From an uncultured Oscillospiraceae bacterium (lineage in GTDB: Bacteria; Bacillota; Clostridia; Oscillospirales; Oscillospiraceae), in assembly GCA_950097245.1 (NCBI GenBank), contig CATNCS010000005.1, forward strand, positions 5,678 through 69,677: a stretch of 64,000 bases of DNA, written 5' to 3'. The stretch's first letter is position 1, and the number at the start of each line of letters is the position of its first letter. The translations under genes were made by a program, and so were the position numbers. The notes below the pieces were generated by a model that saw only the letters and a program-made list of their open reading frames with translations, was not told the DNA's origin and searched no databases. Below are positions 7,701 to 10,674 of this stretch, one piece after another.

Positions 7701-8376
7701 GGACTACCTGGCCAAGAAGTCCGTGTGGATCTTCGGCGGCGACGGCTGGGCCTACGACATCGGCTACGGCGGCGTGGACCATGTCCTGGCCTCCGGCGAG
7801 GACGTGAACATCTTCGTCTTCGACACCGAGGTGTACTCCAACACCGGCGGTCAGGCCTCCAAGGCCTCCAACATCGGCCAGGTGGCGCAGTTCGCCGCCG
7901 CCGGCAAGGTGATGCCCAAGAAGTCCCTCACCGAGATTGCCATGACCTACGGCTATGTGTATGTGGCTCAGGTGTCCATGGGCGCCAACCCCAACCAGAC
8001 CCTGAAGGCCATCGCCGAGGCCGAGGCCTATCACGGTCCCTCCCTCATCATCGGCTACGCCCCCTGCGAGATGCACTCCATCAAGGGCGGTATGGCCAAC
8101 TGCCAGGTCGAGATGAAGAAGGCCGTGGAGTGCGGCTACTGGAACCTGTTCCGGTTCAACCCCGACCTGAAGAAGGAGGGCAAGAACCCCTTCACCCTGG
8201 ACAGCAAGGCTCCCGCCGGCGGCTACCAGGAGTTCCTCATGAACGAGGCCCGCTACTCCGCCCTGACCCGGTCCTTCCCCGACCGCGCCAAGGAGCTGTT
8301 CGCCCTCAACGAGGAGACCGCCAAGAAGCGCTACAACAAGCTGACCCGTCTGGAGAAGATGTTCGGCGAGGAGTAA
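4702..8376 (+). CDS. nifJ: Pyruvate:ferredoxin (flavodoxin) oxidoreductase
   Basis: IYPITPSS, MQSEAGAAG, two CxxCxxCxxxC ferredoxin motifs, GGDGWAYDIG TPP motif. Confidence 0.97.
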   Translation: MARKFKTMDGNNAAAYVSYAFTEVAGIYPITPSSPMADYVDQWAAQGQKNIFGNTVKVIEMQSEAGAAGTVHGSLNAGALTTTYTASQGLLLMIPNMYKIAGELLPGVFHVSARTVAAQSLNIFGDHSDVMACRQTGFAMLAEGNVQEVMDLAPVAHLAAIKGRVPFINFFDGFRTSHEIQKVAIWDYKDLAEMVDMDAVADFRARALNPEHPTMRGSHENGDIFFQHREASNKYYDALPEIVEEYMGKINAKLGTDYQLFNYYGAPDADRVIICMGSFCDVAEEVIDYMNAHGEKVGMVKVRLYRPFRADKLIATIPATATKIAVLDRTKEPGSLGEPLYQDVITALAENGVTDKTVIAGRYGLGSKDTPPRSVFAVYEELAKDAPKKKFTIGIVDDVTDLSLTEKPAPNTAAEGTIEVKFWGLGGDGTVGANKNSIKIIGDHTDKYVQAYFQYDSKKTGGVTVSHLRFGDKPIRAPYYINKADFVACHVPAYIVKGFPMVRDVKPGGTFLINCQWSAEELDKHMPAVAKRYIAENDIQVYLINAIDLAREIGMGKRTNTILQSAFFKLAKVMPEAEAIQYMKDAATHSYLKKGQDIVDMNHKAIDAGASAFTKFEVPASWKDAVDAPVENKHTGPAKLVDLVNNVLDPVDRMDGDSLPVSAFEPYADGTFELGAAAYEKRGVAVAVPQWDSSKCIQCNQCSYVCPHATIRPFALTEEEAKNAPEAAKIVDVKAGKGKGQYKFTIAVSPLDCMGCSVCVKTCPVDALAMVPQEQEAAQQDVFNYMVANVAAKEDMADLTVKGSQFKKPLLEFSGSCAGCAETAYARLITQLFGDRMYISNATGCSSIWGGPAATSPYATTAEGKGPAWANSLFEDNAEHGLGMYLGQKAIRTRLAEKTKALIAVEHTYGPLKEAAQKWLDTMEDGKANEAATKEYVKLLEESIMTVDDIVAFTASPKAAEVFGDQLPQFQAHAKELKESGAKYCDCDACKLVKEILDEKDYLAKKSVWIFGGDGWAYDIGYGGVDHVLASGEDVNIFVFDTEVYSNTGGQASKASNIGQVAQFAAAGKVMPKKSLTEIAMTYGYVYVAQVSMGANPNQTLKAIAEAEAYHGPSLIIGYAPCEMHSIKGGMANCQVEMKKAVECGYWNLFRFNPDLKKEGKNPFTLDSKAPAGGYQEFLMNEARYSALTRSFPDRAKELFALNEETAKKRYNKLTRLEKMFGEE

Positions 8377-8387
8377 TCCTTAAGAAC

Positions 8388-8429
8388 AAAAAACCGCCCC
8401 GCTGCTTCACGGCAGCGGGGCGGTTTTTT
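8388..8429. terminator. Bidirectional intrinsic terminator
   Basis: AAAAAACCGCCCCGCTGC-TTCACG-GCAGCGGGGCGGTTTTTT between convergent genes. Confidence 0.9.
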
Positions 8430-8431
8430 GC

Positions 8432-8635
8432 TTACAGTGCGTTCCAGCAGGCATCCAAGTGTTTATGTAACGCCTGGTTTGCGTCGAACAGATAGTTGTA
8501 CAGTGCGTTGAAGCCCTGCGCATAGGGGTCCTTTGCGTAGGATAACCCCAGCGCCATCGCCTCCAATGCGTTGATCCCCCGAGATATGTCACATACTGCG
8601 GTGGACAGATTGTCTAAATCTTCTCGTAAACTCAT
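8432..8635 (-). CDS. 67-aa hypothetical helical protein (MSLREDLDNL...ACWNAL)
   Basis: AAGGAGG RBS before ATG 8635; ends at the bidirectional terminator. Confidence 0.7.
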   Translation of the reverse strand: MSLREDLDNLSTAVCDISRGINALEAMALGLSYAKDPYAQGFNALYNYLFDANQALHKHLDACWNAL

Positions 8636-8741
8636 GGTTTCCTCCTTGATTTTTACCCGAAGATGTGGCATAATTAAATTTACCATTCCTCCGGGCGTGG
8701 TTAATAACGGATTCGCTGACTTTCGAGGGTGGGCGTTTCCG

Positions 8742-8918
8742 TTATTTTTTGATTCGGCCATGCTGTTCCTTGATCCCCTTCCGGACAACCTCCGACCGGG
8801 AGAGCTGTTCCGCTTCGCAGCACTCGTCCAGCTGTTCCAGCGTCTCCTTGTCCAGCCGGACGCGGAGCATGAAGTCCTTGGGGTTGTCTGATACAGGACG
8901 GCCCATGCGTGCAACCAC
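8742..8918 (-). CDS. 58-aa CopG/ribbon-helix-helix DNA-binding protein (absent from the ORF track)
   Basis: Manual translation: MVARMGRPVSDNPKDFMLRVRLDKETLEQLDECCEAEQLSRSEVVRKGIKEQHGRIKK; beta-strand LRVRL, then helices with SRSEVVR; GAAAGGTGG RBS before GTG. Confidence 0.8.
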   Translation of the reverse strand: MVARMGRPVSDNPKDFMLRVRLDKETLEQLDECCEAEQLSRSEVVRKGIKEQHGRIKK

Positions 8919-8935
8919 GGTTTCACCACCTTTCA

Positions 8936-8976
8936 GTTGCTACAATAAGTATAGTTCTGTTGCGACAAAAAGTCAA
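8936..8976 (-). promoter_or_regulatory. Sigma-A promoter with two direct-repeat operator candidates
   Basis: TTGACT-N17-TATACT (8976-8948); TTGTCGCAAC (8959-8968) lies in the spacer and TTGTAGCAAC (8936-8945) just downstream of the -10. Confidence 0.75.
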
Positions 8977-8996
8977 GCTTTTTTTGAAAAAATTTG

Positions 8997-9022
8997 CGCC
9001 GCTGTCCCGAAGGGCAGCGGCG
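8997..9022 (-). terminator. Terminator of the pur operon after purD
   Basis: CGCCGCTGCCC-TTCG-GGACAGCGGCG followed by a T-rich tract. Confidence 0.75.
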
Positions 9023-9029
9023 TTTGCAG

Positions 9030-10289
9030 TTAAACCTTCCCAATATCGGTGCGGAAGTGCATGTCCTGGAAGGAGATGGGTTTTGCGGCGGCGTAGGCGG
9101 CGGCGATGGCTTCCTCCAGCGTGGAACCGGTTGCCGTAACACCCAGCACCCGACCTCCGGCGGTGAGGACCGTGCCGGTCTCGCCCTGCTTGGTTCCGGC
9201 GTGGAAGACAGTGGCCCCCAGCTTCTCAGCCTCCTCCAGTCCGGAGATAGGATAGCCGCTCTGGTAGCTGACGGGATACCCTCCCGAGGCCAGCACCAAA
9301 CAGCAGGCGGCCCCGGACTTCCACTTGATGTCCACCTGGTCCAGGGTGCCGTCCACGCAGGCCTGGAAAATGTCCATCAGGTCGGTGTCCAGCATGGACA
9401 GGATGGGCTGGGTCTCCGGGTCGCCGAAGCGGGCGTTGTACTCCACCACCTTGGGGCCGTCCTTAGTTAACATAAGACCAAAGTAGATGACCCCCTGGAA
9501 GGGCCGGCCCTCCGCCTTGAGAGCCGCCACCGTGGGCAGGAAAATCTCCTTCATGCAGCGGTCCGCGATCTCCGGGGTGTACTTGGGGGAGGGGCAGAAG
9601 GCCCCCATGCCCCCGGTGTTGGGGCCCCGGTTGCCGTCGTAGGCCCGCTTGTGGTCCTGGCTGGACAGCATGGGCACCAGGTGCTCCCCGTCGCAGAAGG
9701 CCAGCACCGTCACCTCCGGGCCCACCATGCACTCCTCGATGACCACCGTGGAGCCCGATTCCCCAAACTTCTTGTCCTCCATCATCTCCCGGACGGCGGT
9801 TTCCGCCTCCTCCACCGTGGAGGCCACCACCACCCCTTTGCCCAGGGCCAGGCCGTCCGCCTTGACCACGATGGGCGCGCCCTGGGCCCGGATGTAGGCC
9901 AGGGCCCTGTCCAGGTCGGTGAAGGTCTCATATTTGGCGGTGGGGATGTGGTACTTCTTCATCAGCTCCTTGGAGAAGGCCTTGCTGGCCTCGATAATGG
10001 CGGCGTTGGCTCGGGGGCCGAAGGCGGGGATGCCCGCCGCCTCCAGGGCGTCCACCATCCCCAGGGCCAGGGGGTCGTCCGGGGCCACCATGACGAAGTC
10101 CATGGCGTGCTCCCTGGCCCACTTCACCATGCCGTCTACGTCGGTGGCCTTGATGGGCACGCACTCCGCCACCTGGGCGATGCCTCCGTTGCCTGGGGCA
10201 CAGTAGAGCTCCGTCACCTTGGGGCTCTGGGCCAGCTTCCAGCAGATGGCGTGCTCCCGGCCGCCTCCGCCTACGACTAAAACTTTCAT
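9030..10289 (-). CDS. purD: Phosphoribosylamine--glycine ligase
   Basis: MKVLVVGGGGREHA, VKADGLALGKGV, EYNARFGDPE, GGRVL; start moved to 10289. Confidence 0.97.
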   Translation of the reverse strand: MKVLVVGGGGREHAICWKLAQSPKVTELYCAPGNGGIAQVAECVPIKATDVDGMVKWAREHAMDFVMVAPDDPLALGMVDALEAAGIPAFGPRANAAIIEASKAFSKELMKKYHIPTAKYETFTDLDRALAYIRAQGAPIVVKADGLALGKGVVVASTVEEAETAVREMMEDKKFGESGSTVVIEECMVGPEVTVLAFCDGEHLVPMLSSQDHKRAYDGNRGPNTGGMGAFCPSPKYTPEIADRCMKEIFLPTVAALKAEGRPFQGVIYFGLMLTKDGPKVVEYNARFGDPETQPILSMLDTDLMDIFQACVDGTLDQVDIKWKSGAACCLVLASGGYPVSYQSGYPISGLEEAEKLGATVFHAGTKQGETGTVLTAGGRVLGVTATGSTLEEAIAAAYAAAKPISFQDMHFRTDIGKV

Positions 10290-10305: not shown

Positions 10306-10674
10306 CTATAATTCTCCCCAATCAATACAGCCAGGTGCATTCTGAGATTGGAAAAACTCCAAAGCGCACTCCATAGCATCGGAGGCCGGTATTACCTGCC
10401 ATGCGGCAATTTCATATTGGCCGTCGCAAAACGAGACGATGTCTTCCGCTTCTTCATCGCCAAAAGAAACAAGCATCTCGCCGCCGTCCTCCGCCTCAAA
10501 ATAATTGACGACAGCCTGATCGCATTTTACCAGAATAGACAGACAGGGATATTTGGACTCCTCGCTCTGGGAACACCAGATTTCATTTTCCTGCTGAAAA
10601 CAGGTTTCTAAATGAGCCTTATATTCCTCCAAGGAATTGCAAGGAAAAGAACCAATATTACTGCTGATAAACAT
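10306..10674 (-). CDS. Imm1-like immunity protein (orphan)
   Basis: 122 aa, acidic, AAGGAGG RBS; YPCLSILV motif and C-terminal A..CALEFF...PGCIDWGEL resemble Imm1 family features; visibly more AT-rich than flanking genes. Confidence 0.65.
   Translation of the reverse strand: MFISSNIGSFPCNSLEEYKAHLETCFQQENEIWCSQSEESKYPCLSILVKCDQAVVNYFEAEDGGEMLVSFGDEEAEDIVSFCDGQYEIAAWQVIPASDAMECALEFFQSQNAPGCIDWGEL

Follow-up and report, generated by a model that had tools for sequence, protein, structure and literature searches.

A phage-related accessory cassette of gut Oscillospiraceae that appears to keep a 67-residue protein family under double control

Within the window, that is, the whole 64,000-nucleotide stretch of DNA analysed here, we describe a 550-bp cassette on the minus strand, located between the purD terminator and a bidirectional intrinsic terminator that the cassette and nifJ have in common (8388-8429, from sequence and motif scan). 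The cassette is laid out as a promoter with two repeats, a ribbon-helix-helix (RHH) gene, a 106-nt spacer, a 67-aa ORF and the terminator. Our main reading, to which we give a probability of about 0.5, is that it is an accessory cassette that is related to phage control regions and negatively controlled on two levels, namely by autorepression through the RHH protein and by an antisense RNA over the cargo gene. Judged from its sequence, the cassette appears to keep a 67-residue protein family under tight double control. No earlier description of it was found in the literature searched.

The promoter and the two genes

The cassette promoter consists of a -35 hexamer TTGACT (8976-8971) and a -10 hexamer TATACT (8953-8948) on the minus strand, which are separated by 17 nt and together match 10 of the 12 consensus positions. 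It is one of just two promoter-like sites found by motif scan in the region 8300-9100, compared with 0.3 in shuffles, and its TTGAC box is also found at homologous loci. The -10 is flanked on the same strand by two 10-bp repeats at a distance of 23 bp from start to start: TTGTCGCAAC (8968-8959) sits between the -35 and the -10, and TTGTAGCAAC (8945-8936) just 3' of the -10, over the expected transcription start. That these are operator repeats is suggested by the sequence together with repeat statistics across the family. We scored the strongest repeat lying between the -35 and the RHH gene's ribosome-binding site in each of 72 distinct promoters: the mean was 8.6 matched bases versus 4.2 in shuffled sequence, and 34 of the 72 lay above all 30 shuffles. 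At the inspected loci, repeats or palindromes surround the -10, each locus having a sequence of its own. On this comparison of promoter sequences, locus-specific repeats around the -10 are a trait of the family, a pattern that would be expected if repressors and operators diversify together.

The first gene, P0002 (8918-8742, minus strand), encodes a 58-aa protein from a GTG start, which is supported by the existence of homologues that have no internal ATG. The protein matches Pfam RHH_1 (E 2e-7) and PHROG 876, annotated as 'transcriptional repressor' (E 5e-16), while a weak NCBIfam match to VapB (E 0.003) stays below threshold and no informative match was found among PDB sequences. The RHH_1 domain occupies residues 20-53 of the 58 and is followed by only five residues; as far as the sequence tells, P0002 is Arc/CopG-sized, without room for a toxin-binding tail. 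The RHH proteins of the family are basic, with a median pI of 9.5, and the RHH-type genes at homologous loci encode 53-77 aa and fall into several subtypes.

The cargo gene, P0001 (8635-8432, minus strand), encodes 67 aa and has no match in Pfam, NCBIfam or PADLOC; against PHROGs the only match was weak (E 0.047), to a family without assigned function. Its relatives amount to about two dozen 50%-identity clusters among 1.8 billion representatives, the closer ones being 60-91% identical. An AlphaFold2 model made with 25 homologues is a two-helix hairpin (helices 3-33 and 39-66) with a mean pLDDT of 97. Foldseek searches with it against PDB and BFVD returned generic helical hairpins only, all with E above 0.1, and the ESM Atlas yielded only bacterial and viral clusters without a name. 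A profile search against PDB sequences matched only designed repeat proteins, which we took as spurious. With queries from close relatives, the protein was not found among cultured phages or in IMG/VR. Its family consists of acidic, non-hydrophobic proteins (median pI 4.5, net charge about -5, GRAVY -0.03) that have no membrane segment. P0001 represents a new protein family; by the model and its composition, its product is a soluble acidic two-helix hairpin. Going by charge, fold and context only, we take it that the protein may act by binding another protein, in the manner of an antirepressor or anti-regulator.

Both genes are under purifying selection (dN/dS 0.06-0.41), with values in orthologue pairs of 0.06-0.33 for P0002 and 0.07-0.41 for P0001. 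The elements of the cassette exceed chance, as seen in this selection on both genes, in the recurring layout and in the family-wide promoter repeats. The promoter, the repeats, the 58-aa RHH gene, the structured spacer, the 67-aa ORF and the terminator had all been proposed in a sequence-only reading of this DNA, and all are present on the minus strand. The autoregulated RHH layout that it described, with repeats flanking the -10 and the RHH gene placed first, is likewise upheld.

Copies, cargo exchange and phage links

The source genome carries six P0001 paralogues, and 13 of 36 other genomes of the genus gave one to seven matches; no match came from the 24 genomes examined that belong to other families of the order. 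A covariance model of the spacer, built from 16 copies, located seven spacer copies in the source genome, one of them upstream of an unrelated 69-aa ORF, and gave strong matches in three other genera of the family. About 80 distinct spacer elements were found in Lawsonibacter, Colidextribacter, Flintibacter and related Oscillospiraceae MAGs, the spacer motif scan having covered one genome per GTDB species, and four phage or viral contigs (three from IMG/VR, and MT835537.1) carry the element as well. Among cultured strains, Flintibacter muris DSM 110149 and Colidextribacter sp. OB.20 have copies. It lies directly 5' of every P0001 homologue except that of locus L008. At all inspected loci other than this one, a TTGAC promoter, repeats at the -10, an RHH-type gene, the spacer and a small ORF follow in that order.

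At L008 (1500-1900, minus strand), the P0001 homologue has its own promoter and is accompanied by neither the spacer element nor an upstream RHH gene. Its divergent neighbour looks RHH-like by eye, so the link to a repressor seems to persist there in a different arrangement. The sequence-only reading would have been contradicted by 67-aa homologues that are not linked to RHH genes; each homologue examined adjoins an RHH-type gene. Its claim of a self-contained accessory module is borne out by the nifJ/purD junction, where the cassette is present in only four of the genus genomes examined. In five of the cassette-free comparisons the place is taken by a gene for a HAD-like hydrolase or a permease, and the others show no nifJ/purD adjacency within the fetched locus; no spacer element was found in the junction region of cassette-free genus genomes. 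An alignment-based search for the locus was unproductive, since it had no conserved block to work from.

Several loci depart from a single intact copy. L027 (G095:C92) has an RHH gene and element with a cargo cut to a few codons, followed by a second, full cassette; L056 (G005:C123) has two complete cassettes about 590 bp apart; and L038/L114 is a tandem-cassette locus in which the L038 elements are fragmentary. Type II toxin-antitoxin (TA) genes adjoin cassettes at L005, L010, L015 (source genome C6) and L016 (source genome C43). These are the four of the first 17 loci with such neighbours, which are of RelB/ParE, BrnT, MNT (nucleotidyltransferase)/HepT-like and ParE type. The placement of cassettes beside TA genes suggests small accessory islets. 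In the window itself, the ORF list shows an acidic 122-aa ORF just past purD (10306-10674, minus strand).

The cargo is exchangeable. Of the 67 downstream ORFs called, 56 are P0001-family members, and the other 11 encode unrelated proteins of 41-152 aa. The RHH proteins of L141 and L143 are 98% identical, yet they lie upstream of unrelated cargos, and one RHH subtype heads three different cargos. On contig MT835537.1 of a gut phage (L091), a close P0002 homologue is followed by a P1-like hairpin (P1 is described below), a 74-aa ORF and a Bro-N/KilAC antirepressor gene, the last assigned by PHROG 130 (E 3e-78). Its operator repeats, TTGTCGCTAC and TTGTGGCAAC, are nearly the same as those of the source cassette, and TTGTCGCTAC takes the same position as TTGTCGCAAC. 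The same order of RHH gene and element, small ORF and Bro-N/KilAC antirepressor gene occurs in a related genome (L029). On the three IMG/VR contigs, at least two cassettes (L092 and L093) stand moron-like beside ORFs that resemble packaging or morphogenesis genes, by eye only. A phage- or ICE-derived switch had been among the options of the sequence-only reading, and the phage contig, with its close RHH homologue, near-identical repeats and downstream antirepressor gene, speaks for it.

Other elements were seen in the same surroundings. A twister-sister ribozyme (RF02681, 83 bits, E 9e-18) lies at L030:333-415 on the minus strand, at a distance of about 1.1 kb from a diverged element resembling the spacer, which itself sits in an apparent prophage early operon of another genus of the family. 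L030, L033 and L039 have in common a conserved 5' leader hairpin, GTAAGGCAGGGG...CCCCTTAC, with a purine-rich box, about 100 nt upstream of 40-aa ORFs; these ORFs are followed, in apparent prophage early operons, by the diverged spacer element.

The multicopy state bears directly on a type I-like addiction or abortive-infection module, in which the 67-aa protein would be a toxin, a labile antisense RNA its antitoxin, and the RHH protein a damper on transcription. If transcription stopped, for example under phage attack, the RNA would decay and the stable mRNA would be translated. A type I-like role would be favoured by copy number, by patchiness and by the TA genes beside four of the first 17 loci, and also by the fast diversification of the cargo family, by the occurrence of cassettes as independent units at intergenic sites and on phage contigs, and by the constant company of cargo and repressor gene, which extends to the element-free L008. 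The predicted antisense RNA overlies the cargo leader, and the cassette would resemble hok/sok in that a short convergent RNA, made from its own promoter, overlaps the mRNA leader of a small protein; multicopy state and patchy distribution are further points of likeness. However, the cargo is acidic and soluble (median pI 4.5, GRAVY about 0, no membrane segment) rather than a hydrophobic peptide, and it finds no match in PADLOC, Pfam or NCBIfam. Unlike type I systems, the cassette has an RHH repressor gene upstream in the same operon, and the same controller heads unrelated cargos, with an antirepressor gene included in the operon in two cases. We consider a type I-like module doubtful.

The intercistronic spacer and the predicted antisense RNA

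The spacer between the RHH gene and the cargo (8636-8741, 106 nt; about 110 nt at homologous loci) is the best-conserved part of the cassette. Among the seven copies in the source genome, the stretch from the linker through hairpin P2 to the Shine-Dalgarno box has 72% nucleotide identity, compared with RHH pairs that are mostly not alignable by BLAST and cargos that are 33-62% identical or unrelated. In the same copies, the structure of hairpin P1 is kept at a sequence identity of 47%. Rfam 15 gave no covariance-model match over 8636-8741 with E up to 10, nor did Rfam match the spacer at 15 related loci with E up to 0.1. The sequence-only reading had seen the hairpin correctly but missed both that the spacer is the most conserved part and that it can be read as an antisense gene.

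We considered and rejected a coding spacer. An in-frame N-terminal extension of the cargo exists in many copies, but its frame varies and the stems covary. Indeed, the distance from the cargo Shine-Dalgarno box, AAGGAGG (8647-8641, minus strand), to the start codon varies between copies by non-multiples of three, and the spacer is therefore non-coding. The public gene calls P0003, P0008, P0012 and P0015 (79-115 aa), which start far upstream and run through the spacer, are on these grounds probably mis-called starts of 67-aa proteins.

Hairpin P1 (8746-8703) starts at the RHH stop codon and, on the plus strand, reads as a terminator with a T-run. Both partners vary in nine of its ten pairs, and the stem occurs in at least six different sequences. 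Pairing is found in 95% of its cells, versus about 40% with slid partners, in an alignment that was fitted to the model and so favours structure. Hairpin P2 (8695-8656, minus strand) belongs to the sense mRNA and comprises an outer stem, an inner stem (P2b) with the arms UGGUA/UGCCA, and a conserved 10-nt loop.

On the plus strand lies the second of the two promoter-like sites in the 800-bp region scanned (8646-8674): a -35 TTGATT (8646-8651) over the cargo Shine-Dalgarno box, a 17-nt spacing, and a TG-extended -10 CATAAT (8669-8674; TGgCATAAT). An invariant CAA precedes the Shine-Dalgarno box, and the -35 is its complement; part of the conservation of this promoter is explained by the cargo ribosome-binding site. 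The usual -10 and -35 both depart from consensus. TTGnnn, the TG, A2 and T6 of the -10 and the spacing are kept in 41 of 43 elements, with 17 nt between the hexamers in 40 of the 41 and 16 nt in the remaining one; CATAAT, TATAGT, TATCAT and CATACT occur as -10 variants among them. The promoter is also kept by two diverged relatives in which the sequence between the hexamers has changed, namely L091 on the phage contig (TTGACT, 18 nt, TG-extended TAGAAT) and L030 (TTGATT, 17 nt, TG-extended TATCAT), the latter with a terminator-like call following on the same strand.

Downstream of this promoter, a conserved run of four to seven T residues (8745-8750, plus strand) lies over the RHH stop codon. 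In 33 of the 41 promoter-keeping elements it falls 68-75 nt past the antisense -10, directly after P1; in six of the other eight an earlier T-run was scored first, and in two no T-run was found. The A-run and TAG that form the T-run are not explained by coding constraint, because they are kept even in elements that have the RHH stop codon 6 nt farther 5'. The non-Watson-Crick cells of P1, read on the sense strand, comprise 44 C-A or A-C cells and one G-U cell, although these are non-independent and represent roughly six events versus one. C-A and A-C cells of the sense strand are G-U pairs only on the antisense strand, and the asymmetry of 44 to 1 thus favours, on pairing grounds, the antisense strand for P1.

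A promoter on the opposite strand of the spacer, followed about 70 nt on by a hairpin and T-run, predicts a cis-antisense RNA of about 68 nt (approximately 8682-8750, plus strand), for which promoter, T-run and wobble pattern all speak. It would start 6-8 nt past the CATAAT box and end in the T-run, at 8748-8750. Its predicted fold (-30.9 kcal/mol, z -5.7) consists of a long hairpin between a short 5' region and a U-tail, and the mRNA linker and the 5' half of P2 contain the complement of the RNA's 5' tail. The spacer accordingly looks like an antisense RNA gene. The predicted start near 8682 corresponds on the mRNA to a position about 35 nt upstream of the Shine-Dalgarno box, which the RNA would not cover. 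We examined a freed anti-Shine-Dalgarno model, in which the RNA would sequester the 5' arm of P2 and the 3' arm would then pair with the Shine-Dalgarno box. Masking the RNA target lowered the predicted accessibility of that box in 38 of 68 copies, raised it in seven and left the source cassette unchanged; we therefore rejected the model as a general mechanism.

The wobbles of P2 point the other way. The single varying pair of its inner stem runs through C-G, U-G and U-A, with 16 sense-strand wobble cells, and P2 is probably a real mRNA hairpin, and the target of the predicted RNA's 5' tail, because U-G wobbles of this kind pair only on the sense strand. It follows that the spacer may also, or only, be a sense-strand leader: a structured intercistronic element that binds a protein or ligand, or an RNase site, which would set cargo translation or split the mRNA and of which the antisense signals would be by-products. 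The sense-strand fold indeed consists of two hairpins (z -3.7), and almost no variation is seen in the 10-nt loop or the 5' arm of P2b, neither of which a promoter needs. In contrast, the C-A and A-C cells of P1 break the hairpin on the sense strand, and a promoter would fit the unchanging CAA, the fixed spacing of 17 nt and the invariance of A2 and T6. Likewise, the diverged relatives keep the hexamers while changing what lies between them, and no Rfam family was matched. We regard a leader that works on the sense strand only as unlikely.

Proposed working and relation to known systems

We propose that the cassette works as follows. A sigma-A type promoter would drive a bicistronic mRNA, the first product of which would be a minimal RHH repressor. 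This repressor most likely binds both 10-bp repeats around the -10 and so shuts off its own promoter. The convergent promoter in the spacer would make the countertranscript of about 68 nt, ending at the hairpin and U-tail over the RHH stop codon. Pairing of this RNA with the linker and the 5' half of P2, collision of polymerases, or both, would lower the translation or stability of the cargo mRNA; duplex-triggered cleavage and transcriptional interference at the promoter located on the ribosome-binding site are possible routes. The repressor part of the mRNA would be left intact. The cargo would presumably be a protein binder, similar to an antirepressor or anti-regulator, that needs tight silencing.

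The closest parallel for such an arrangement is the immunity I region of phage P22, in which arc, sar RNA and ant together form an 'ant moron' (PMC2629481, PMC13397905). As in P22, the operon would open with the gene of a small RHH autorepressor whose predicted operator overlies the promoter; an intercistronic, convergent gene for an antisense RNA of about 68 nt would follow, in our case predicted from sequence features; and the whole is an independent, moron-like unit. A Bro-N/KilAC antirepressor gene lies downstream only in the related cassettes L029 and L091, after the small ORF. However, the spacer has neither sequence nor Rfam similarity to sar. While sar covers the ribosome-binding site, the RNA predicted here stops short of it and only its -35 overlaps. 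The cassette also has no Mnt-like second repressor, its downstream gene encodes a domain-free 67-aa hairpin instead of Ant, and its host is a Gram-positive gut anaerobe.

Plasmid pMV158 offers a second parallel, since repB is controlled there by an RHH repressor, CopG, together with an antisense RNA, RNAII (PMC4485353). RNAII begins with a single-stranded 5' tail, folds into one terminator hairpin and ends 3' in a U-rich stretch (PMC4485353), features that the RNA predicted here would share. In contrast to pMV158, the cassettes are chromosomal and multicopy with swappable cargo, the downstream gene does not encode a Rep initiator, and the predicted RNA is longer than RNAII. Because sequence and Rfam similarity are lacking, the ribosome-binding site is left uncovered and the cargo is neither Ant nor Rep, the cassette is, on sequence comparison, a member of neither the P22 immI nor the pMV158 system.

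A classic type II TA pair, in which the RHH protein would be an antitoxin that neutralises the 67-aa protein by direct binding, is very improbable: a first RHH gene, a small second gene, operator repeats in an autoregulatory promoter, the sub-threshold VapB match and the TA genes close by at some loci recall RHH-type systems (ParD, CcdA, RelB, VapB), whereas the RHH protein has no toxin-binding extension, a long conserved spacer of 106 nt separates genes that neither overlap nor abut, 98%-identical RHH proteins are paired with unrelated, non-cognate partners, and searches of Pfam, NCBIfam and PADLOC gave no toxin family for the cargo. Of the overall interpretation put forward in the sequence-only reading, the accessory module, the autoregulated layout and the phage switch are supported, while the type II TA pair is unlikely.

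Tentatively, the controller may recombine at the conserved spacer to acquire new payloads and move between phage and chromosome, reaching seven or more copies per genome, in which the near-identical antisense tails could cross-regulate; the 67-aa acidic hairpins would then be a new class of tightly gated effectors of abundant gut Oscillospiraceae, either soluble type I-like toxins or anti-regulators.

If the double-control reading is true, the cassette would bring with it one candidate family of small RNAs and one family of small proteins, both new and absent from Rfam, Pfam and NCBIfam, and both belonging to common but poorly studied anaerobes of the human and mouse gut. The repressor-plus-countertranscript logic of P22 immI and pMV158 would then have been reused by these bacteria in a chromosomal cassette that is modular, multicopy and able to exchange its cargo.
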